DNA of 63,843 bases, counting the filler, from Collodictyon triciliatum (lineage: Eukaryota), in NCBI GenBank assembly GCA_043381765.1. It is 14 parts of 14 records of this genome, joined end to end, with 100 filler letters (N's around TTAATTAATTAA, not from the genome) between each part and the next. Parts side by side here need not be neighbours in the genome. Positions count along the whole stretch, not along the records: positions 34,655 to 38,881 come from JBHJMP010006357.1; 13 more parts are not named here. One strand, written 5' to 3'. Positions 767 through 59,392 of this stretch are shown in pieces; position 1 is the stretch's first letter; each line of letters opens with the position of its first letter. The notes under the pieces are model-generated. The model worked only from the letters and a program-made list of their open reading frames with translations, was not told the origin of the DNA and searched no databases. The translations under genes were made by a program, and so were the position numbers.

Positions 767-3700
767 ATGTCGCAAAACAGCCTGCCATGGCTCGGACTTG
801 GACAACCGCATGTGGTTTACATGACACAGCAAATGCCACAACCACAAACTCAGCCACAACCACAAACTCAGCCACAAACCCATACCCCATCGTTCCCTTC
901 GCTCTCACTGGCCACCATGTCCTGGGTGCATACCCCTATGCCGTCCGTCTCGAGTGTGCCACCTGCTTTTCTGGCTCAATCTGCGCCGATGCATTCTCCA
1001 GCCACAACCACAGCCACAACCACAGCCACAACCGCTCTCTTGCCACAGACTCTGCCACAATCTCAACCACAAAGACACCCACAACCACATCGAATATCGG
1101 CTGTTTCTGTGTCTGCATCATCGTCTTCATCGCCGCCGTTGTTGGTCAAATCAAAGACAGCACATAACCAGGTCCTTTTTTCTGTGGTGTATTCTTTATT
1201 TTATTTTTAATATGTTTTTTTTTTAACTTTTTAATTTTTGACATTTGTTGTGATGAAAGTTGATTGGCTCAAAACGGGCATGTTTCATGTTTTCTCCTCT
1301 CTTGATTACCTTGTTGGTATCCTTTCTTCCCGCTTCTTTGTTTCCTTCATGATAAGATAGTAATGATCAAGGAATCATTTTTTCTCTTTGTGCATATATA
1401 TCTTACCCATCGATATGTAATATATTCATCCATCCTTCATTGTTTTTGATAAATTTTTGATAAATTTTTATTTCTTTACTTTACTTCACTTTACTTTTTT
1501 TTATGTCTTGTATTCTTTGACAAATCACTCACGCCAGTAAATCCTATCCTCTGCAGGCGTGGATCTCGCCATTTCTAACGTCCCAGATGTATGCAATATA
1601 TTCTTTAAAATCAATCACTTAAATTCCCTTTTCTTCATGATGAGTTAAACAAGAGCTTGAAATTAGGGTAAAGATGACAGCTGATTTAGAACTGAAATGG
1701 CCGATTCATCTAAAATCAAACCACTTATCATTTCGTTGCCCCCTGCCACACCCTTTTCAGATAATCTCAGCTTTTGTGAGCTATTTGATTTAAAATAGCC
1801 AAGATCTATTCCTCTTCTTCGTTTTAACACTATTCACGCATGATAATCATTTGCAAATCTTATCACACAAATACAGACACCCAGAATCGCCCCATTCTCA
1901 ATCTGAGTCTTCTCTTCATTCTCTAAAAACTACTTTGCATTTGGGACATAGTGCATCGCGATTGAATATATCGAAGGAAATCCAGCGATTCAATTGAAAA
2001 GCTTCATCGAGGCCAATATGTTCGACAGATACTTTGTTTATGAAATGGGTATTATATCACTTGGCTATTTTTACAACGATTGGTTCATAACCTTATACTA
2101 TCTCCTCCTTTTACTCGAGGTTGACAACCTTAGATATTTGGGTAAATACGTTTTCAATACCCAGTGTCAATCAAAATAGGGGTCATATGAAAATTTTAAT
2201 TATTATACCACAAATAACAAAACTTATACATATAACCGACATTTGTAGACGTTCCCCGTGCAAAGTCTTCTGAACCTGATGCAAAGATTGTCCGCGTTGT
2301 AAAAGATCGCCTTTTGCCTCCTCGGAAGATGTTTGGAATTAGTCAACCGATCAGATGTGTTCTGGCTTTAAATGTCATAGTAAGCAACTTAAATCGTGAT
2401 TACCTCAAGACACAATTTTCTCAAAAGTAGAGATGATGAACATATTATACATTAGCTCTCTAGATTTAAAGGCAATTATTTCTAACAGATGGTAATATCC
2501 TCTCTGTTCTAGTTTTTTTTTTTTTTGTGCTATGCGATTTGTAAAGGAAATATTTAAAATACACCCAGGACCAAAATACCAGCGAGACGGGATGGTCGTT
2601 CCTCGACACACCAACCTTTGTTGTAGTTACCCACATAGACGATGCTGTACAAGGACTCTTCGGAATAGGCTCTGTTGTACATGGCTATACAGATGAGGTT
2701 TTCATCTTTTTATTGAAACAAACATACCGTTACTGAAGAACAAAACACTTCGAATTGAAATAGTTTACATGAAAATTGATACCAAACAACAACACATGTA
2801 GCGTTCGCTGATAGACTTTGCACTTGTGAACATGGTTCTTGGCTCAAAATCTAGTCTAAGTGATAGCCTTATTACTCCGAGGGACATTCCATTTCTTTCT
2901 TGTGTATCATCTCAGATACTAGGCACAGGTATGTGTCTCAGTAGTCTAACTTTAGCACTAATAGGGTGTGTATCCAGTGACTGCGACAATTTACTCCTTT
3001 ACCAAGATTTACTAACTAATTTTGGCTCTATATGAATCACAATAGGTTCAGTCACATTATCACAAATAGTCGCTTCCAAGCAGTTCAGTTTGCTAAGTCG
3101 ATTAAGTGCATGGTTTGGCAAACTATTTGTCATCATACGAGAGCATGTTATCTTCGATATGTGGAGAAGCAAAAGGTATTTCGTATCGAACAAATACATT
3201 CTTTTCTTCTTCTTTAAACTCGTACACATTGTCCCAATATATCCATCAACAAACAAATAGAGAAATTAAACATATGTAACTTTATTCCATTAGTTGGATT
3301 TATTGCTAAAATAAAATATACAATCCCAATATATGCTCAAAGAATCCAAGGGTTCATGCTTGCCGAGGAAGCAGAGAGCATCTTGACGTCGTGTCCGGTG
3401 GGGTCTTTTCTGCTTCGATTTAGCGAGGATATGAACTACCCAGGTCATCTCGTCCTATCGTACAGAGAAAATGACAAAGATTCGAGAGTCTGTCATGAAG
3501 TTATCAAGATAACGCGACACTCAGAGAGTAAGCCAAAGGGAGGGAAGGAAACACCCGGGCGCATATCCTTTTCTTATATAAGTCCGTCACTCCTGGAGAC
3601 TGGGTATTTATTTTGTCCTCGTTATTGTCTTTTTTTTTTTAAAAAAATAAAATAAAATAAAATAAACTCTACTTCAAGAGGCGACCTATTCGAAAGGCAC

Positions 3701-4343: not shown

Positions 4344-4430
<87 letters not shown>

Positions 4431-4480
4431 GCCCGATCACTTTGAATCGAATAAAGATAAAATAAAATATATAGCCCGAT
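4431..4480 (+). mobile_element. 36-bp micro-copy of non-LTR element 3' end with 7-bp TSD
   Basis: GCCCGAT (4431-4437), then CACTTTGAATCGAATAAAGATAAAATAAAATATATA, then GCCCGAT (4474-4480). Confidence 0.8.
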
Positions 4481-4540
4481 AAAAGAAGCCTGCCCATAAA
4501 ATCCCAGCCACTTTCATAGCGCCAAGCCAAGACAGCCGGG

Positions 4541-7500
4541 ATGGATCCGCTGCCCCCAGAAATCTTCCTTCGGGCAGGACTCACAGAGGAGGTGCGACGG
4601 GACATGGCGACCGTCCAGCAGGCGATGCAGCAGCGCCGCACCGAACAGCAGCAGCGCCACCGCACCGAGCTGCAGCGGATTCTGGACCGGCCGCTCTCGT
4701 CCATGGTGCAGACGAGGCCAGCCGCACCGCCGCCCACCGCACCGCGGCCCGCACAAAAGCCTCTGCCGCGCTCGCAGTCCGCACCCCGGCTGGCCTCGTC
4801 GCCGCTGGCAGGCACAAAAGGCCCGGCCCCGACCGCCCCGCGCCTGCCCCACGGTCCCGCGCCTGCCGCCCGCAGGAACGGCCCGGCACACGGCCCCGAC
4901 CACGCCGACCACGCCGACCACGCCGAGCTGTCTGGCCTGCGTGTGACCGGACACACCCGCGAGATAATCCCGCATCCGAATCCGCAGCCGCTGGTCCCCC
5001 GTGCGGGCCACGCCTTTGCAACCAAGGATGACGCGCAGGACTTGCATGTCCGCTTTGTGCATCCGGGCCCGATTCTCCCGGTCGATGCCATCGAAGCGTC
5101 GGCTCCACTTGTGCACAGGCGCATCCGCTTTGATACCGAGGGTAGTCCACAGCCAGGGAGCGATAATGTCTCCGAAAACCATCCCCGTCCGGATCCGTCA
5201 CCTGGAATGGAGAGCGTGTATCTTTCATCATTTTCTTCTTCTTCATCTTTCCTTATCGCACTTTATTCTGCCCCTTTGTCTCGTGACATGCGGGCTCTGC
5301 TCCATAAGCACTTCTCTTGCTACATTCACCCATGCACCCATGCACCCATGCACCCATGCACCCATGCACCCATGCACCCATCCATCCATCCATCCATCCA
5401 TCCATCCATCCATGAAAGCAAATGAGAAAAATCCCCTATTCATCCTTCTAATTTACGTGTTTCCTTCAGGGGGTCATTTACTTCATTCAAGCTCCACTCG
5501 GTAGCCCCAGACGGGATTGCGTCACTGAGGTCAAGTTCACCTCTGCTTGTCTCCGAGAGCACATTGCATCCACAAAAGACAACCACATCCTCACATAGTC
5601 CTATAGCCAATAAGACAGATAAAAATGCAAAGCATTCTATTAGCACTGCGCCAGCTCAATCGGTGACTACTCAAAGGCCACCATCAACACAAGAATCATC
5701 TATATTTCGTTCAAAGTCACATTCTCCAACATCAAAATATTCTGATCAAGTAGCACATAGCCAGGGAAACAAAGACAGGGTAAAGACGAATCTATCTAGA
5801 GTTCCGTCCAAGGATTTTCCTAAAGATATTCCAAAGGCACCTAAATCTGCATATTCGAAACCACATTCCGCCAGTTTATCAAAAAGCCAAGACATCCACC
5901 AGGAAATAAAGAAAATGGAGAGTTCTACAAACAGAGTTGTTTACCTTGAGACGGAGTTGAAGAGTAGCCACATTGAGAATGCCAAACCAACCCAAAAGAA
6001 ACTCAGAAAAGTAATTTTATACAATACAAAAGGATAAAGGAAACATCATCCCGATTTCATCGCCTCTTCACCTTAAATTCATATCAATAAGCAAATTACA
6101 GCATCCCGCTCTCCTATATAGAAATTGTATGTAGTGTATGTAATGAAATTGATATACTATTTTACCTAATTGCATGCGCAACTAGACTCAAAAACATAAA
6201 GTAGAGCTCCCCACGGAGATACTGGACGAAATAATGGTTTTTTCTTTTGTAAATGAATCTATAGATCATTAATCATATTTCAAAGATAATATGAATCATA
6301 CCAAAGAACTTTGAATCGAATAAAGGAAAAAAAATGAAATACCAAAGAAAAAAAAGAAGTAAAAGTAAAATAAAAACCAAATTCATCGACAATACGAAAA
6401 CAGGATATACCTGAGGAAATTATTCTGAGCCCAGCTATGAAGAGATCAATGAAAATCGATGATTTATGCGGCAAAACAAAATGTAAAACTATTACATCCC
6501 AAATATCGGTCCTTCAGATTCAAGCGACAGCTTAACATATCATCCTTTCTTCGATTTATTTTTAATTTTTGATCATAGTCTCAAGGGACGAAATAATATT
6601 GGTCATTAATCATTTCGAGCAGCAACTCGGGAAGCTAAACGTAAACCTTACAAACAAAAATGAATTTCCTGGAGAGGTATATAGACATATATCCATCTGC
6701 ATATATTTTTTTATAGAAAGGAGAAAAAAAACAAAGGAAAAATGAAGTTTACTTTTTTTTTATTTATTATTTAAAAAAAAAATAGGGTATTTGGATTAGC
6801 GATGAATCAAATACCATACGATTTGGGCATCTTAATCACAATGTCGACACATTCTTTCCCTTAATTTTTTAATTTAATCCATGATTTACTAATACATACA
6901 CTGATAGGAATCTGAATTACTATTGGATAGGGAAAAACTCATGGATATGATGACAAAATTCTTTGGGATAAATGATCAATACTTCCTAAAATCCTTATAT
7001 CACCTCGCCTTGAGATGGGTATTTTCATCAACCAAAAAGAGATGCTTATCCATATACAGCACAATTACATGCTCAGCTGGACTATCAATAACAACATACC
7101 CATTCTCCGCTTCTCGTTCTTCATGCTATCTTTATTGTATTTCCATCCATCTAACACTTCCCAGCTCTCAAAAAATGAAAGCAAAGCTTTATAAAAATAG
7201 TTACTAAAAACACTGAATGCTGGCTAAATAAAAAAAAAAAAAACATTTAATAGGACTATGTCCATAGCATGGCCAACAACCCACACTTGAGCTCTCATAA
7301 TGTTATCCACGAAAATATTGCGTCGAATGTTGGTCGCAGATCCTCAATTCCTTATGTTGTCTATCAAACACCAGCTACTTCGATGTTAGATGCCACAATC
7401 AAGGATGAAAAAGACATAGGCGTCGATTTATTTTGCCGAATTATGGTTCATTTTCCTTTCTTTTGTGCCCCTTTCAATTTTTTTTTCAAATTATTACCTC

Positions 7501-30770: not shown

Positions 30771-33700
30771 ATGCAGCACACTTTTCAAACAAACCCTAAG
30801 CAGATACCCGGGAGGGTTGTGTCAACTGCAAATCCTTCAAAGCCACCTGTTTTTGGTTCAATGCCTATGCCCACTACATTCAATCAAGCGTCGACATCTC
30901 CATTCCCTGTTCACAAAGTGGCAGAACCGATCACACGCCAGCAAAATCACACCTCCACAGCACAACCACTCCCATACACTAACTGGATGAACCCTGCAGA
31001 GCAATTTACTGCAAACTTCAATGAGCAACGTTTTCAGTAAGAAGCAATAAATGCATAGAACTTAACAAGCATCCTAATACTTTTTCTTTTTACAAAATAA
31101 AATACCTTTGCTCTCTGTAAATGTAGATTCATAAACTTAATGCTTTTCTCATCTAGTTTAGTGGGCTCAACATATATACTCTTATCTTTCTAATGCTATT
31201 TTTACATCATGAAGCTAGTATGTGTTTGCTCTTTACTTTTTTCGTTTATTCCATTCTGTGTACTAATATCCATACCTTATTTATGATTCTCAACATATAA
31301 AATATCATTTAGAGGAAATCCTACATCTCCAACGCCCCAGGTGATTCCAAATCGAACAGTTCAAACACAACCAAAAACACCAGCACACCACGCATCAGAG
31401 GTGCAAAATCAAGATGAGATTTACCCTCAGCCACAAGTACAACATAAACCAAGGTCACAATCGCAAGGACAGACCCAAGTCATATACACACAACCTGTTC
31501 CACCTACAATAAAACCCGATACATTCTTATCTCAGGGCAGTGGATTTGACTCAAATGGATTTCCTGTCCTGAGGCATCGAAAGGATTCAAACCCCCGCGA
31601 TGAAAAAGTCGGGCTCATTACTCCTGAATCATCAAGAGACAATCATGAATCTAATTATGTCAGCCAACTCCAGGTATATAATTTTAAATCATATCCTATT
31701 AATTAAACGATACCTCAAAATTCGAACCATTTATGAAAACAATACAAAAACAAAAAAAAGCAAACAAAAAATTCTTGCTTATTTAATTTACGTCCAGCGA
31801 ACAATTTCAGTGATTCAAGACTTCCCAGAGGATGCTTTGTATCCCCCAAACGGGAAAATAATAAAGAACTATAAGCTCATTAAGACCCTTGGGACTGGTG
31901 GATTCGCTCTTGTTAAAAAGGCCATCGATATCGAAACAAAAAAATATGTTGCCATCAAGATATTTTCAAAAAAAGGAGAAGCGTTCAACTCCCGATTAAT
32001 CTCGTATATTCTCATTCTTCACATCTAATTTACTTTCATACTTTTCATAAAACTATGTTTTTTTGGGCTCAAAATATGAAAATATATCGATATTTTCCTC
32101 ATAGGAATGAAGTTATGGTCATGAAGAAAATATCTCATCCAAACATTATTTCTTTCATCTGCGCATTGGAGGATACAAATTATATATACATCGTCATGGA
32201 GTATGCAGACGGGGGCGACCTTTTGCGCCTCGCTATGAAAATGGGGCGTGTTCCAGACGATATGTCCAGACAAATATTTTCTCAACTGGTATCAGGTAAA
32301 TCAAATGTCATCGGCATGTATTAACAAACAAACAAACAAACAAACAAACAAACAAACAAACAAACAAACAAACAAACAAACAAACAAACAAACAAACAAA
32401 CAAACAAACAAACAAACAAACAAACCTCCACAAGGAAATCATATACATAAATGTAATGTGAGTAAAACTCAACAGATGCTCTGTCCTAGAAATCATAAGA
32501 AAATTATCCTATCATAAAATAAAAATCATTCCTTGGTCTCCAAGAGTCCCTAACTTAGGCTTTCATCCATCCCTTACAAATACAATAGCACTTTCTTACC
32601 TCAAGAAGCTTAAAATCACTCATCGGGATTTGAAGCTGGAGAATATTCTCTTGTCTAGTACGCCACACTTAACCGTGAAGTTAAGTGATTTTGGAATGGT
32701 AGGGATTAGTGACCCAAGCATAATGCTTAGGACTATATGCGGGACACCTGTATATAATCCGCCGGAAGTATTGGACCAAAAACCATATCTCGGACCACCA
32801 GTAGATATTTGGTCATTGGGTGTTATATTATACTCTATGTTATGCGGCAACTTCCCTTTTGACGACTTAGAAAATATTCAGCTTCTGTATAGAAAAATTA
32901 AACAGGGAATATATCCTGCTCCAACGTGTGACCGCCTCGCAAAAGACCTGATTTCAAAAATGTTAGTGGTTAATCCATCTAGTAGATTGACCGTTGAACA
33001 AGTGGAGGTACATCCTTGGATGCAAGTCGGAGAAAAGACTTCAATCACAAGAGAAGTTGTCTTGCAAAAGATTAGAGATTCATACAATTCTCCATTTTAT
33101 CAGAAGCCATCTCTTTACAAGCCCATTCCAACTCCTTTACTTAACAAACGTCCAAAAGACGCATCTTTACGCAAGGAGGCACAAACACAGCCCAAGTCAA
33201 ATAGAATAGGAAACAAATCTGGGATGGATAAAGGAAAAAATACCACTCCCCTCCCACCTGAGGCCAAAAGAGTCGGAGATAGTACCCAAACCCCTTCAGC
33301 AGATTTAGTACCCACCAGAACTGATGAATTCCTATCTCCTTCGCCAATACCCAAAGCCTCACAATCAACAGCTATCTTATTAGTAAGTCAGTCCGTTACT
33401 TCTCCCAGGTTTATTCCCCAGCAAGGTCCATATCAGGAACAGCAATTATATCAGGGACAAAACCGAAAATTGCAAGACGAAGTAGCAGAACAAATACAAG
33501 ATAATCAAGAGTTCAAAATAATTCAACCGCAAACGCAAATTCAAACACAAACACAAACACAAACGCAAACGCAAGCACAAACGCAAGCACAAACGCAAGC
33601 ACAAGCACAAGCACAAGCACAAGCACAAACGCAAGCACAAACGCGAGCACAAACGCAAGCACAAGCACAAGCACAAGCACAAGCACAAGCACAAGCACAA

Positions 33701-34554
33701 GCACAAGCACAAGCACAAGCACAAGCACAAGCACAAGCACAAGCAAAAAACCATATTCCTAACGTCGCAGCCAATCCATTAGACGGAGTCATTGCACATG
33801 ATAGCAATCGATATTGGGTATGGTCTTCGCAACAAGTCAGTTTTGAAGAGGATGAGATTTTCTCTGAAAGCAGCGAAGAAGAAAGGGAATCGGAAGCACA
33901 CAACCAAGATCCTCAAGTCGATGCAGTTCCATTTTGCTCGGACGATTCAGACCAAATAATAACTATCCAGGAAACGAGAATCATCACATCAGAATCTATA
34001 ATCACAGATGCTCCTACTCATGTTCCTTTGGTTAGCCCGCCCCTTCGCGTAATCGACCACACAACACCAAAATTTGAATGGAAGCTCCTTAAGCCTGTGG
34101 ATGATGTATTCTATTCATCTTTTCGAATTATAGTGTAAGCACACTGGTTTTAGTTTAAAATAAATAAATAAAATTTCTTTTTTCTTCTCATTAGCTTCCA
34201 GGGAGAGACAAAACTTCTCGATCAAACTCAAGCGAAGGAACGTCCACCGTGTCAAATAGTTCATCTGCAGATATTTCGCCCTCGACCACGCGCACAGGAA
34301 GAACGATAAGCAATGATTATTTACCACAAAATTTCTTTCGGGAAGGGTCTCACTCTAGTCCAAGTTCGATACATATATCTAGTGGAACTACTTCACTCAT
34401 TTATGTATGCTTTATTCCAATATTTTTTTTATGCATTTATGTCGACAAAAAATGATTTACATATATTGACATGTGTTTTCCAAAACTAATTACTGTTATT
34501 ATAATATCCCATAACATATAAATCTAGGAATCAAATCTTGGGAAAGAGTTTGGC
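30771..34554 (+). CDS. SNF1/AMPK/MARK-related (CAMKL) Ser/Thr kinase with (AQ)n tract, 3' truncated
   Basis: [66 protein letters not shown]. Introns splice in phase. Confidence 0.93.
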
Positions 34555-37500
34555 NNNNNNNNNNNNNNNNNNNNNNNNNNNNNNNNNNNNNNNNNNNNTT
34601 AATTAATTAANNNNNNNNNNNNNNNNNNNNNNNNNNNNNNNNNNNNNNNNNNNNCGCCGACCCTCAAACACTGGGCCCACTCCCCCAACACCCACGCAGC
34701 CCACCCAGACGGCGATCCTTTCCACCGCAACCAACGCCATCTCGCTCACACACTGGCACACTCGCTCGCCGCAACATTCTCCCCAACAAAACACATTCTC
34801 TATATACTGTCCGCTTATAGATAAAACTGCACCACAACAAAAAAATTATTTTATCCATCTTGGGAATATGGAGCATTCGTCCTGTTCGGTCTATTTCCGT
34901 GAATAGCGGCATCGTAGCGCTCCTGCTATCTTCACACCATGGCAATCAAAACACACACAGATGCATCACGTTGCCCAGTCGATGCAGAGTCAGCTCGCAG
35001 ATACATATCCTTCCAGCTTGTCTCATGGAACTAGTAAATTGGCATGCTATAGTGAATGTGCTTTTCTTCCCGTTTGATAGCGGTGACTTGCAAAAAAGAA
35101 AAAACGTCAATGATAAACTAACTGTTAAAATGGTTTCCCCTATATTCAATTCAAAATGCATCTTGCTGTTGTAATGCTAATGTCCTCGCTTGGATTGTGA
35201 TTTCTTTTGCAATATGTCTTTATTTCATATGGATTATAGAGCATTTAGTTTATGGTTTGCATCAAATAATCTAACTGCATCGCACGATGAATTTTAAAAA
35301 AAATACAAAGATATAATCCATATCGAAATATATATAAATGTTTTATTAAATCGTACATTTCGCACATATCGATTTATTTATGTTTCACATGCCTAATCGC
35401 TACATCTTATCATAAAACCTCATTGATGATATCACTATTGCGACGATATCGAGTCTTGGAAGTATTGTTTTCTATTACAAAGTCCTCAAGAATACAACTC
35501 AATTGCATAATGATAGAAATTCTACCTCCAATATTAATACAAATAGATAGTCTGCACAAAATTGAAAGGAAGAAAAAATACAAATAGATAATAGAATACA
35601 CCATTCATATCAGCCGTAAAGAAAAGAATACGACATGAAAATAAAGAATCACTGGCGACAAATCATATTAACGATGAATGATAGAATCACACTATCTTCG
35701 CATCGCGACTATTTTCTCAATATCAATACCGCTTGACAGATTGTAACATGATGAATATTTCTAAATATAGAATGATGTTATCCATGCCATTCAGAATCGA
35801 TTCATACAAAGCCTTACTTAAAGCTTCAAGTGACCATCAATAAGTGTTTTTATTCTATCATACTATATTACAGGGTATATGTAACATCCATCAGATAAGG
35901 CTTCCAAATAACTATTAACTATTACACAATATTAGAGATGAAAAATTAAATGAGAAATCGATATCATATAACTATGTACAGCGCATCGTTTCATAAGGTA
36001 CACAGTAATGACACTGTAAGATATTCGGTACATATGAGCTTATCCAAGAATTATGTCGGCGTCAATTTGAGCTGTTGTTCGAAGCTTCTTTATGAGCAAT
36101 TTGTTTATTTGTTGGTAGGGTCATTAATATAAAGTAAATGTGAGTGGACCACATGTTTACTTATAAAACAGTTTAATATATATCAAATGTGAATGGAATA
36201 ATCGATGGTTCAAATTTTATCAGATGTGAATCATATGGTATAGAATTCAACATTAGATTCCATTAATATACAATCATGTCTTTGAATGTTGAAAAATGAT
36301 TTTTACAAGACAAGTAGCAAATGGACGATTACACTTTTAACGCATAATTGAATTTTCGGGTTTTATATGGTTTAAAATACAATCAAAAGAAAATGTTTCG
36401 TATGATTTGTCATTTGAATGCTTTAAATCAAAGGTATGAGAAATGAAAAAAAACGCTCTTATTATAAAAGTGAAAATTATAAGAAAAAGAGTTAAAATGA
36501 CTAATGAAATAATTAATATTAAATGAAACGTTCTGGATTAATAATATTTTAGTTACTCAAAATCTAATAAAAATGTGCATTAAATAAAAAGCAAGCGATT
36601 CACAAAAATAAAAATAAACCCGAGAGTACTTGAATAATGTCTCGAAATCTTCATCGACATATTTCAATGGCTTCGGTTTTGTATGAGTTTTGTACCAATT
36701 AAAAAAATCTTATTTTTTGAAATACAAATAAATGATATGTATATATTATAAAGTGATATTTAATGTAATTATATCTCTTGATTATAAATTGCATGCTTCA
36801 CTTCAATTAAAATATTACCAAATTAATCTTTTGTGCTGTCATTCTGTATGTGTGGAGTGATATTTGCTTGTTGGAGGCGTCAAAGGCGATGGATAGCATT
36901 TCAGGTGTATTTCAATTGAATTGATGAAAAAAAAGCCGAATTAAAGAAGCCAATATATTTTTATCGATTCATGATACATTTAAAGTTTCATCAAAAATCA
37001 AATTTATGATTTAAGAATCGAAGTATTAATGAAGTGAGATTAACTTGAGTAAGACGTTAATTTTAATAATCGAGTAAATACATCAACTAATAACAAAAAA
37101 ATTATATAATTATTCGTTTCTCAAGTCTAAATTTATATAATCAATAAATTCTATAGTGTTCAGCTTTTTTTCTCTCCTACTTAAGGTAAGAATCGATTTT
37201 ATTATAAATTCAGATATTATTTTAAATAGGTCGGTTCATAAACGAGTGCTATGTATTTTTATCAATCCTTGAAATAATAAACCAAAGTGAATATATTATG
37301 ATAATTAATTACAAAATAAATTTTTTATTAAATTTCAAACATAAGAAAATATAACAAAACAGATTAATAGAAAAAAGTTAAAGTTCACCTTTTTAGCATA
37401 ATGCAATATTAATTAATAGCTTAACATTGCCTTCCCAAATTTATTATATTTTATTATAGATATAATATCGATTACAGAGAATAAATAAATGCAATATAAT

Positions 37501-38099
37501 GATCTAAATGAAAATAAACTTGTTTTACATTTACATTATAATTTTTAATTAATATTAACAAAAATGTTATTCCTAGTCTTCAACTACAAGTTGATATTTT
37601 GAATTTGTTTTATGCGATTAGTTTGCCTTTATGTTTATCAAAATCCTAGTAATTTATTTTTCAAATTGATAATTAAGATAATAATTAATCTTATTTTTAT
37701 ACAGTTTCAAATAATAAATTTTGTCAAAACGCTTATATTATTAATTCAATAAAATTTAAAAAAGACTTTATTAGATTGCATTTAATAACGAAATTTTATA
37801 ATCAACATATTTTGAATTCTATATGTAATTTTATTTATATCCAGTAAGGAATTGTTTTTATGTCATCGGATTCTTTTTTTATCATTCCTTTTAATTTTGT
37901 GCAGGATGGTGAAGATGTTGGCTTTGGGATATATGTCATCGAATTCGTAATTAAAATTACAATCTCCGTTTTTCAAATTTTCCTTTCCTTAAATAGTTCC
38001 GTTCAGTTTTTAATTATATTCCACATTACGCATATATATGTACTTTACGTATATTTTGATAAAAGTGTAAAATTATTTTTTTAATTCTATTTCATATCA

Positions 38100-38881
38100 T
38101 TTTTTATTTGATTTTGATTTTGATTTTATTTTTGATTTTGATTTTGATTTTGATTTTGATTTTGATTTTGATTTTGATTTTGATTCTGATTTTGATTTTG
38201 ATTTTGATTTTGATTTTGATTTTGATTTTGATTTTGATTTTTGTTTTGATTTTGATTTTGATTTTGATTTTGATTTTGATTTTGATTTTGATTTTGATTT
38301 TGATTTTGACTTTGATTTTGATTTTGATTTTGATTTTGATTTTGATTTTGATTTTGACTTTGACTTTGATTTTGATTTTGATTGTCATTTTAATTGTCAT
38401 TTTAATTGTCATTTTAATTGTCATTTTAATTGTCATTTTAATTGTCATTTTAATTGTCATCTTCATTTTTTCCTTTTTTTCGATTCAAAGTGAAGCGAGG
38501 TTATGCCATACAAAGGGGCGGGATGGGAGCGCATGGGAGAGAGCAAACGCGAGAGGGAACACAATACCGTGGAGAGGGTAGAACCGGAAAGAAATCAGTG
38601 ATAGTGAGTTGGTCAGGTGGGCTTCCTAAATGGTTGATTGGTTGCGTGTGTAGCGAGGGTTGGATATGCTGTGGGTGATATCGCACGACACATTCCCACA
38701 TCTCTCTTCGCTTGTGGTCAGAGTAGCGAAGAATGCGAGCGTGTTTCAGCAGACTGTTCAGGAAGCTGTATTGCACGAGGCTCTCAAGCCTGGATACATT
38801 GATTTCTCGTTCGGGTGAATCATTGGAGCGAGAGAATGCGCGCACACTCCATAAGGCCCACAGCATATGTCCCCTTGTGAC
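38100..38881 (-). mobile_element. 3' end of a non-LTR retrotransposon (ORF C-terminus, 3' hairpin, microsatellite tail), cut by contig end
   Basis: Intronless minus-strand frame open from the contig edge to 38501: HMLWALWSVR (like the W..W..R motif late in L1/Tx1 ORF2)...DQLTITDFFPV...*. Then CACTTTGAATCGAAAAAAAGGAAAAAATGAAG, (ATGACAATTAAA)n and (ATCAAA)n. Homologous to the TSD-flanked insertion at 57937-58144. Confidence 0.75.
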
Positions 38882-39398
38882 NNNNNNNNNNNNNNNNNNN
38901 NNNNNNNNNNNNNNNNNNNNNNNNNTTAATTAATTAANNNNNNNNNNNNNNNNNNNNNNNNNNNNNNNNNNNNNNNNNNNNTCTTTTGTTTTCTTTTGTT
39001 TTCTTTTGTTTTCTTTTGTTTTCTTTTGTTTTCTTTTGTTTTCTTTTGTTTTCTTTTGTTTTCTTTTGTTTTCTTTTGTTATTATCGTTGGTTAAGATAA
39101 AGGGGTAAATAGTCTCGTGACAAGGTGGAATAAAGGGGGGAAAAAGAGAGAAATAGATAGCTTTGAGAAGGAGCAAGGACGTGTGAAACAGAAGGCAAAC
39201 TGGTGAATCCATGCCGCGTGCGAAAAGGGTGGGTCTTGTCGCAGTTTGAAAGAAATGATCGGCCGCAGCAGCAGATGCCTGTCTTTGTTTGTTTGTTGTT
39301 TATTAGTCAGCGTCTTTGTTTGTTGGGAGGATTTGTTGAAGGAGTGGGTGTTTCGGAGTCGTGTTTGCATCAAACGGCCCCTTACTTTTCATCTGTGC

Positions 39399-39490
<92 letters not shown>

Positions 39491-57039: not shown

Positions 57040-57834
57040 ATGGCGCAGTTTATCAAACTCCAAAGCTCTGACATTACACCAGGTCCTCTTGTATTCGGCA
57101 CAGAAGATTACCGTATTATCCAAGCTCGAGATAAAAGAACAGGACAGACGGTCGCTGTCAAAGAATATCAAAAATCACAGCTCCACAAACCTGAATATGT
57201 CGAGCCCATCATGGAAGAAGTCGGTAAGCTTGTCGCTTTGCCTCGACACAGCGGGGTTTTATCCTACCTTGGTGCTTATGTCGAAGAGGGCACTTTAAAT
57301 ATCGTCCGCGAGTTTGGTGAAGGACGTACCCTCGAGGAAATCATTCCCACGCATAACTTCGACCTTGAAAAGATCAAAGAATTAGTTGAAATGATCTGCG
57401 ACGGCGTTTCATTTTTACACTCTCATGGATTGTTTCATTACAACATCAAGCCCGACAATATAATACTGAAGGCTGATGGAAGTGTCGCTCTTTGTGATTT
57501 TGGGATGCTCGAGCTCCGTGATAGTATTCAACGTAGAGGCACATCTAGAAGACTAGACATTGCGGTAGCTCCGCCAGAATTGTTCCGCGATGGCTCTTAT
57601 GTGGGAGAGAAGAGCGATGTTTTCTCAGTCGGGCTTATTTTATGGATGTTTCTCTTCAAAAAGATTCCCAAAGTCCGCTACTTTGACACGAGAAAAATTA
57701 CCGATCCAAAAATGAAAGAGCTGCTGACCAAGACATTTAACCAAACACCTGAGGAGCGCCCGACACTGGACGAGTTTCGTCGCAGTATATTAACTGATTG
57801 CGTATGTGGCTTTTCTTCACAAGTGATCTCCTAA
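57040..57834 (+). CDS. Protein-kinase-fold pseudokinase (HRD replaced by HYN, no Gly-rich loop)
   Basis: VAVK and DFG are intact, but the catalytic loop is LFHYNIKPDN and GxGxxG is absent. Possible phase-1 donor at 57785. Confidence 0.85.
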   Translation: MAQFIKLQSSDITPGPLVFGTEDYRIIQARDKRTGQTVAVKEYQKSQLHKPEYVEPIMEEVGKLVALPRHSGVLSYLGAYVEEGTLNIVREFGEGRTLEEIIPTHNFDLEKIKELVEMICDGVSFLHSHGLFHYNIKPDNIILKADGSVALCDFGMLELRDSIQRRGTSRRLDIAVAPPELFRDGSYVGEKSDVFSVGLILWMFLFKKIPKVRYFDTRKITDPKMKELLTKTFNQTPEERPTLDEFRRSILTDCVCGFSSQVIS

Positions 57835-57919: not shown

Positions 57920-58161
57920 ACAAAGACCGACAAAGCTTTTGGGCCGCCCACCTGACCAACTCGCTATCACTGATTTCTTTCCAGTGCTGGCCTCTCCACG
58001 GTAGTGTCTTCTCTTACCCGCGTTTGCTCTCTACTATGCACACCTACCTCGCTCTTTTATGGCATTAACTCACAGCGCTGAATCGAATAAAGGGAAAAAA
58101 CAAACAAAAGAACAAACAAAAGAACAAACAAAAAACAAACATAAACAAAGATCGACAAAGC
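57920..58161 (+). mobile_element. ~208-bp 5'-truncated non-LTR retrotransposon copy with 17-bp TSD
   Basis: ACAAAGACCGACAAAGC (57920-57936) and ACAAAGATCGACAAAGC (58145-58161) flank it. 57946-58003 matches the reverse complement of 38565-38622 at 53/58 by hand alignment. Ends CTGAATCGAATAAAGGGAAAAAA plus a CAAA-rich tail. Confidence 0.9.
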
Positions 58162-58202
58162 CGAATTAGTGCGAAATGCGAAAGGAGCTGGTTAACCTGT
58201 AG

Positions 58203-59392
58203 AAGCTCGCAAAGCTGAAGAAGTCCGCAAAGCTAGAGCAGCAAGTAAGTGAGAACATTGTCCTCTTCCTTTGCAGTCACTGATACTCCTATAAGGCGGC
58301 CTCTGACATCAAACCAAATCAGCCCCTAGCCGCCTGACCCTGGGCAAGTATGCAGACCTGCTAACCACGGACTTTGAGAGGAGGGAAAACTTCCTGGGCA
58401 AGGGCGGCTTCGGGATGGCGTACAAGGTGCAGCTAAAGGAGGGCGTCTTTGCTATCAAGAAGATCCCTGATGCTATGGTCTCATCATCCCCAAACGGTGC
58501 AGACCCCGAGACCGAGGGCAAGTTGATGCTCGAACTACAGCACCCAAACATCCTGAGACTCTATGACTTTGGGTACCACAACAAGGACCTGCTCTTTGTC
58601 ATGGAGTTTGCGGACGGTAGAGACCTGCACACACTCATCGAAAGGTGCAAAGCGCTAGGAAACGATCTGACCCTCAAATACGGGCTGCACATCATCCATG
58701 GACTTGCCTATCTCCACTCTCGCGTGCCGGCCATCCAGCACCGCGACCTGAAGACAGAGAATGTCCTCCTTGTGGACGGCGTCGCCAAGCTGACTGACTT
58801 CGGGCTTGCAAAGAGTGGTGTCTCTGTCAACTCGGTGAGCAAGTTCGGTGGCTCGATGAAATGGTCCCCACCCGAGGTTTTTGACGGGGGCAAGGGTGTG
58901 GGCCTGCCTAGCGATGTCTACTCGTATGGCCTTGTCCTCTGGTCCATGCTAAGCGGCAAGTATCCGTACGAGGGAATGATTGACAGTCAGGTCAGTTTGA
59001 GGGTCCTTCGTGGGGAAAGGCTTCCTCTCCCTGCTACCTGTCCTTCTAACCTCGCAGCTCTTATCCACAAGTGCTGGGAGGGAGACTATGAAAAAAGAAT
59101 AACCGCGGTTCAAGTCAGGACATATATGGACGAGCTCATGCGCAACCCAAACACCGTGATTGAGAAGACATCAAGGGATTCAGTAAAGGGAATGAGCAAC
59201 GCGCAGCTTGTCAAGTACCTGGAGGATGAGCATGTCATTAAAAAGTTTATTGATATCGTAAAGAGCGCCAATGTGACAGGTGATGACTTCCTTGAGCTTG
59301 ATAAAGACAATTTAAAATCCAGACCATTCAAACTCAACGAATTCGACGCCAAAACGATTATCAAGTTGATTGAAGAAGCCAAGCACAAATAG
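58203..59392 (+). CDS. TKL-group protein kinase with C-terminal SAM domain (5' end unresolved)
   Basis: LGKGGFG, AIK, HRDLKTEN, DFG, GSMKWSPPE, SDVYSYG, CW...R. SAM-like tail MSNAQLVKYL...NVTGDDFLELDKDNLK. Intron 58245-58322 (GTAAGT...CTGAC...CAG) links an upstream exon EARKAEEVRKARAA. Confidence 0.9.

Follow-up and report, generated by a model that had tools for sequence, protein, structure and literature searches.

Retrotransposition of human LINE-1 (L1) requires PCNA (PMC10830420, PMC7617806, PMC5381506), which is reported to bring RNase H2 to the process (PMC10830420). The PIP box of the human ORF2 protein (ORF2p) lies between the endonuclease and the reverse transcriptase. This was stated in an initial annotation of the DNA analyzed here, and as background it is dated: a 2025 cryo-EM report argues that PCNA docks on a motif of the ORF2p wrist domain termed 'PUB' and not on the PIP box at residues 407–415 (PMC7617806). 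The latter is described as a helix packed on the palm and fingers of the reverse transcriptase (PMC10830420, PMC7617806).

Proteins of other mobile elements also bind sliding clamps. The transposase of pogo has a PIP box, and a two-hybrid screen is reported to have identified this protein as a partner of PCNA (PMC5371812); the pogo PIP contributed to a high-affinity peptide termed 'PL' (PMC4103810, PMC4615156). In bacteria, transposases such as Tn7 TnsE and those of IS families are reported to bind the beta sliding clamp (PMC5371812, PMC4549789). A TD pair within the PIP box is described as something that few PCNA partners have and as a source of high affinity for PCNA; the pair is also part of the PIP degron of Cdt1, p21 and Set8, which has the form Q-x-x-psi-T-D-theta-theta-x-x-x-R/K (PMC3973308).

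Two L1-like 3′ ends from Collodictyon triciliatum are described here, and the protein tail that they encode carries a PIP-box-like motif with the TD pair. In searches of openly available full texts, human L1 is the only retroelement for which a PIP box was found described. No retroelement was found in that literature whose protein has a canonical PIP box of the TD type past its zinc knuckle and close to the C-terminus, and the motif presented below, as read from sequence, would be such a case.

Composition of the window

The window, by which is meant the whole stretch of DNA analyzed, is 63,843 bases long and consists of 14 contigs joined by identical linkers of the form N44-TTAATTAATTAA-N44 (e.g. 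at 38882–38981). Because the window is made of joined contigs, features on the two sides of a linker are not genomic neighbors. Twelve of the 14 contigs are between 4,223 and 4,243 bases in size. A Pfam scan of the open reading frames places eukaryotic genes on the contigs, among them protein kinases, an SH2 domain (carried by ORF 3218–3652, E 1e-6), a fragment of an inositol monophosphatase and alpha/beta hydrolases. The SH2 domain points to a eukaryotic host that has phosphotyrosine signaling. Two protein-kinase genes are in tandem on the plus strand, at 57040–57834 and at about 58200–59392 (Pkinase E 1e-32 and 2e-50), and the second of these apparently contains a short intron close to its beginning. 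A third kinase gene, at 31573–34135, occupies three or more frames, presumably because introns interrupt it, and its C-terminal extension is long.

One contig opens with a GC-rich block (4344–6034), which has 45–47% GC compared with about 35% elsewhere and displays long open frames on both strands, including a proline-rich frame of 301 aa. The block was considered as an ORF1 or other 5′ part of the retroelement and was set aside, as it has no Pfam match and no link to the family described below. Microsatellites are numerous across the window. Very long simple repeats, together with a T run of about 80 bases, are found at 38100–38460, 38983–39070 and about 39400–39480; such tracts abut contig ends and may therefore explain the assembly breaks at these places.

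Two copies of a retroelement 3′ end

The features of the two copies are listed in Table 1. No further copies were found in the window when it was searched by tblastn with all family proteins. The peptides QLTITDFF and QLAITDFF, which the initial annotation had read in copy 1 and copy 2, respectively, were both recovered on translation, the one from the minus strand and the other from the plus strand.

Table 1. Features of the two retroelement copies, with positions counted along the whole window
Feature	Position	Strand	Basis or remark
Copy 1, 3′-terminal 416 nt of retroelement, 5′ side cut by contig end	38466–38881	−	Comparison with copy 2
Copy 1 open frame, 126 aa + stop (P0001), C-terminal tail of ORF2-like protein	38501–38881	−	phmmer
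QLTITDFF, PIP-box-like with TD signature, P0001 residues 91–98	38588–38611	−	Translation, family alignment
TAT codon where copy 2 has TAG; probable stop loss	38564–38566	−	Copy comparison; P0002 ends at the same residue
Copy 1 3′ untranslated region, read through	38466–38563	−	Comparison with copy 2
A-rich simple repeats directly 3′ of copy 1, (TGACAATTAAAA)n then (AAAATC)n	38100–38465	−	Tail unlike that of copy 2; element share uncertain
Copy 2, 5′-truncated 208-nt insertion: last 21 codons, stop, 3′ UTR, A-rich tail	57937–58144	+	BLASTN, repeat analysis
QLAITDFF in copy 2	57957–57980	+	Translation
TAG stop, 7 codons after FF	58002–58004	+	Copy comparison
A-rich tail (CAAACAAAAGAA)n of copy 2	58101–58144	+	Repeat analysis, family D1
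Target-site duplication, left, 17 nt	57920–57936	.	Repeat analysis, family D2; 16/17 identical to right
Target-site duplication, right, 17 nt	58145–58161	.	Repeat analysis

Copy 2 is located in the 0.4-kb spacer between the two tandem kinase genes. It displays the hallmarks of a non-LTR insertion, i.e. 5′ truncation, a target-site duplication and an A-rich 3′ tail. With the truncation, the tail and the 17-nt duplication as its signature, copy 2 is a 5′-truncated, target-primed insertion.

Copy 1 is found at the very end of the contig that spans 34655–38881, and the contig that comes next in the window is unrelated. The end of the contig at 38881 cuts the copy off (the linker begins at 38882), and the window therefore holds nothing upstream of its open reading frame. 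Copy 1 had been designated the 'parent' element, a label that nothing in the window supports. On the 3′ side, the last bases common to the two copies, TGAATCGAA.AAAGG.AAAAAA, are at 38466–38487 in copy 1, and beyond them the two copies carry differing A-rich simple repeats.

The open frame of copy 1 continues for 28 residues past the FF of the motif, up to a stop codon at 38501–38503. As copy 1 has TAT in place of TAG, probably through loss of the stop, the frame runs on through the 3′ untranslated region to 38501. Copy 1 is likely a stop-loss derivative, and having lost the stop codon of the family it is probably dead. The proposal that the open reading frame ends in the motif does not hold for copy 1; the intact-looking copies of the family end 7–9 residues past FF.

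A family of ORF2-type protein tails

P0001, the protein encoded by copy 1, has no Pfam matches on its own. A phmmer search with P0001 against 1.84 billion representatives (E ≤ 1e-3) gave nine matches, eight of which are short members of one family; the ninth, the 2,629-aa VWA protein P0009, was discarded as spurious. P0001 and P0003 match with an E value of 8e-16 and are 47% identical over residues 1–104, and residues 1–104 are the part of P0001 that is matched by relatives. Identity with P0004 is 93% over residues 1–42, and with P0007 it is 36%. A profile search (E ≤ 1e-3) gave 12 proteins, and a search with residues 1–125 of P0011 added only P0017, which brings the relatives to 15 in total. 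All 15 are 45–345 aa in length and originate from contigs of at most 1.8 kb. The family gave no match in bacterial and archaeal genome contigs, and a profile search for longer proteins yielded no longer relatives.

The zinc knuckle zf-RVT (PF13966) is found above the gathering score in eight of the 12 relatives scanned with Pfam, and not within the window itself. In alignment A3, residues C174, C177, H186 and C191 are invariant and give the spacing CX2CX8HX4C, which is reported as the knuckle spacing of L1s outside mammals (PMC5381506). The position of the window sequence relative to this knuckle is provided by P0004, whose zf-RVT lies ∼40 residues upstream of its overlap with P0001. Given the 93% identity of the overlap and the knuckle upstream of it, the window open reading frame corresponds to the tail of an L1-like ORF2 protein, past its zinc knuckle. 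At the level of related sequence sets, 27 of the 30 Atlas clusters nearest to P0011 are eukaryotic zf-RVT sets; the Atlas look-alikes of P0017 have a best score of 0.79, which is the chance level. P0017 is the piece that reaches furthest upstream and is without a Pfam match. Searches of solved structures by sequence gave nothing relevant (two matches for the A3 profile, at E 0.15 and 1.7, and none for P0002), and a Foldseek comparison of the low-confidence P0011 model with the PDB gave no matches at E ≤ 0.001.

It is thus well supported, if indirectly, that the open reading frame encodes the C-terminus of a protein family of the non-LTR, L1-like ORF2 type. The initial annotation had also taken the element to be a non-LTR retroelement. 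The zf-RVT of the relatives and the target-primed marks of copy 2 support this, and the reverse transcriptase and endonuclease were not reached: neither is found in the window open reading frames (none of the 115 scanned matches) or in any relative, all of these being pieces within the size range given above. Both domains would presumably be present in the upstream part of the family protein.

The C-terminal motif and its conservation

The PIP consensus Q-x-x-[ILMV]-x-x-[FY]-[FY] is fitted by both window copies and by eight of the 11 family copies in which this position is covered. These eight have QLTITDFF, QLAITDFF (three copies), QTAITDFF (two copies), QTVITDFF and QSVITNFF, and the TD pair is present in seven of them. 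The three copies that depart from the consensus are P0008, with QFLITDFS, P0010, in which position 4 is not aliphatic, and P0006, with QTLLLISF. The last of these would be a decayed copy, as its sequence fits the loss of one nucleotide from the QTAITDFF of its closest relatives. In its loose form, Q..[ILMV]..[FY][FY], the consensus is found seven times in the 117,340 residues of the six-frame translation of the window, and five of these occurrences are outside both copies. The motif alone is not rare enough in 64 kb, and the weight of the argument therefore rests on its conservation in relatives.

This conservation was scored by column with one representative per subfamily, five in all, which are 24–47% identical to P0001. 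The scores along the motif are Q 1.0, x 0, x 0, I 0.6, T 0.6, D 0.3, F 0.6 and F 0.6, and the mean of the 28 columns that precede the motif is 0.113. With a window score of 0.617, the motif ranks first of the 36 windows of the tail (the next has 0.383) and fifth of 98 overall. Across subfamilies, therefore, Q, I, T, D/N, F and F are kept and the x positions vary.

The motif is also constant in its position. The protein ends seven residues past FF in P0002, P0007 and copy 2, and nine residues past FF in P0003, P0011 and P0013, where for database proteins the end may be a stop codon or the end of a contig, as the records do not distinguish the two. P0001 and P0016, the two read-through copies, continue in sequences that are unlike each other, and the stop after ..PSPR is therefore likely the native end. 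A C-terminal placement of the motif, proposed from the window alone, is thus seen in the intact-looking copies and is kept across diverged subfamilies.

In AlphaFold2 models built with the family alignments, the motif is in coil of pLDDT below 50 after the last helix (residues 77–126 of P0001 and 325–345 of P0011). The two models are low in confidence overall (mean pLDDT 54.8 and 47.6 for P0001 and P0011, respectively), and for this reason the predicted 'disordered tail' is weak evidence; the tail may be exposed. The motif is probably a functional peptide.

Residue +4 after the motif differs between subfamilies. It is P in the subfamily of the window (PVLP) and in P0007, H in P0003, and R only in P0011 and P0013. 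The combination that defines a PIP degron, TD with a basic residue at +4, is consequently not found family-wide: TD is present, and +4 is basic in P0011 and P0013 only. In these two members of subfamily B (P0011 ..ITDFFAVPR.. and P0013 ..ITDFFAVIR..), the R at +4 completes the PIP-degron signature as published (PMC3973308).

Constraint between the two copies

In a BLASTN alignment of 167 columns, copies 1 and 2 are 79% identical (E 2e-34). When the two-copy alignment is read in windows of 58 nt, identity is highest, with 53 positions, in a window that spans the motif; the initial annotation had pointed to this stretch as the best-conserved part, and the count was obtained again on recomputation. 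Within the motif itself, 23 of 24 nucleotides are identical. The 22 codons shared by the two copies show five synonymous and four non-synonymous differences, and one of the latter is the TAT/TAG pair. This gives a pN/pS of 0.29 (Fisher p 0.055), a borderline value that comes from 22 codons and two copies only. The coding part is identical at 57 of 66 positions and has no gaps, whereas the untranslated region is identical at 63 of 87 with six gap columns (p 0.047, again borderline and from two copies). Past the TAT/TAG codon, the copies differ by insertions and deletions that are not multiples of three. The statistics are thin, yet all of them point to constraint at the level of the peptide.

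A possible role of the motif in binding PCNA

With a consensus residue at every defined position, the TD pair and the PCNA requirement of human L1, a PCNA tether is proposed. On balance, it appears somewhat probable that both loci are L1-like 3′ ends and that the C-terminal motif is a canonical TD-type PIP box that tethers the ORF2 protein to PCNA. The ORF2-type protein would have a CCHC knuckle (zf-RVT), followed by a helical segment of ∼140 residues and a variable, probably unstructured linker, and would end 7–9 residues past Q-x-x-I-T-[D/N]-F-F. The motif would be a working short linear motif, i.e. a high-affinity TD-type PIP box on a flexible C-terminal tail, and by this tail the ORF2 protein would be tethered to DNA-loaded PCNA. 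Perhaps the tether brings the enzyme to primer-template junctions, or holds PCNA-bound helpers at the insertion site. A coupling to replication forks, as suggested in the initial annotation, is putative, like the PCNA binding itself. No PCNA gene is present among the window open reading frames scanned with Pfam.

Many LINEs recognize their own 3′ ends, and the 58-nt stretch with the highest identity between the two copies (53/58) spans the motif. This raises the question of whether the conservation is at the nucleotide level, with a 3′ RNA element that is recognized by the reverse transcriptase of the element and an amino acid motif that is its by-product. Such an explanation appears very improbable. 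The 3′ tails of the two copies fold no better than shuffled sequences (z +0.98 and +1.10), the consensus fold of the two copies (−10.55 kcal/mol) has no compensatory changes among its 26 pairs, and Rfam gives no matches, either for the whole window or for each copy; the RNA structure that the initial annotation had itself raised as an opposing explanation thus shows no such signal. Nor is there a notable hairpin downstream of the open reading frame, as had been reported: the sole perfect short inverted repeat in 38440–38881 is 8 nt in length and lies within the open reading frame. The differences beside the motif are mostly synonymous third-position changes (five synonymous in 22 codons), the x positions are free across subfamilies while the defined positions are kept, and the true untranslated region is less conserved and takes insertions and deletions. 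It is also improbable that the motif has no function and is a chance PIP match, arisen in a tail rich in F and I and kept by shared descent. Five other chance occurrences of the loose consensus in the six frames of the window would fit this explanation, as would the small sample of the family, 11 copies in about five subfamilies. Against it, the motif survives at 24–47% identity, where the 28 preceding columns have a mean score of only 0.113, and its distance from the protein end is fixed.

A more serious alternative is that the peptide is conserved but that its partner is not PCNA. PIP-like motifs are read by several partners. The motif could lie packed on the protein of the element itself, like the human L1 PIP helix on the palm and fingers, or could bind ORF1p or another FF-reader, for instance one with a pocket of the Rev1 or Mlh1 type. 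The computed conservation is at the protein level and points to no particular partner. In addition, the canonical-looking PIP box of human L1 is reported to be structural, with PCNA on the 'PUB' motif (PMC10830420, PMC7617806). Because that PIP box looks canonical and yet is a packed helix, a perfect consensus is no proof of a PCNA handle. An alternative partner is nevertheless judged rather unlikely. The motif is predicted past the last helix, in low-confidence coil that is followed by prolines, which would be more in keeping with a docking peptide than with a helix packed on the protein, and the preceding linker varies freely, with a mean column score of 0.113. All eight positions fit the PCNA consensus, with the rare TD pair included (PMC3973308). 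PCNA would be the best candidate for the partner.

Implications

Whether and how LINEs make use of PCNA is under active revision: for the classical PIP box inside human ORF2p a structural role is now argued, with PCNA assigned to the wrist motif (PMC7617806). If the PCNA-tether proposal is correct, an unambiguous, exposed C-terminal PIP box in a distant L1-like family would be independent evolutionary evidence for a general clamp requirement, and would provide a simple, peptide-sized system in which that requirement can be tested. A further suggestion, which is speculative and open to considerable doubt, is that an L1-like lineage evolved its own C-terminal TD-type PIP box independently of the surfaces used by mammalian L1, and that the motif of the R(+4) subfamily constitutes a full PIP degron. 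Were this the case, capture of the sliding clamp would be a convergent feature that target-primed reverse transcription has required repeatedly, and in the R(+4) subfamily host CRL4-Cdt2 could destroy the enzyme on chromatin-bound PCNA.

Comparison with known systems

Human L1 ORF2p and the window family are alike in that both are of the non-LTR ORF2 type, have a C-terminal CCHC knuckle and contain a sequence that fits the PCNA consensus. Both elements also have an A-rich 3′ tail, 5′-truncated insertions and target-site duplications. They differ in the location and setting of the motif. The PIP box of human L1 (residues 407–415) is between the endonuclease and the reverse transcriptase, in the tower/NTE, and forms a helix packed on the reverse transcriptase, and the 2025 study places PCNA on a helix of the wrist. 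In the window family, the motif comes past the zinc knuckle, in predicted coil that leaves it 7–9 residues short of the C-terminus, and has the TD pair. Neither the reverse transcriptase nor the endonuclease was found in the pieces of this family.

The PIP degrons of Cdt1, p21 and Set8 share the TD pair with the family, and P0011 and P0013 also share the R at +4. They are unlike the window's subfamily and P0007, which have P at this position, and P0003, which has H; a basic +4 residue is therefore not a feature of the family.

The transposases of pogo, Tigger and Lemi1 resemble the window protein in being mobile-element proteins with a canonical PIP box. In pogo, the PIP box contains the TD pair and lies close to the C-terminus. 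These proteins are cut-and-paste DDE transposases, however, and not products of retroelements, and they have no homology to the window protein. Bacterial clamp-binding transposases follow a similar logic, in that a short motif for the clamp gives them access to DNA under replication or repair, but they act on the bacterial clamp, belong to DNA transposons and have a different consensus. Recourse to the sliding clamp by mobile elements is thus already known from human L1, from pogo, Tigger and Lemi1, and from the bacterial transposases.
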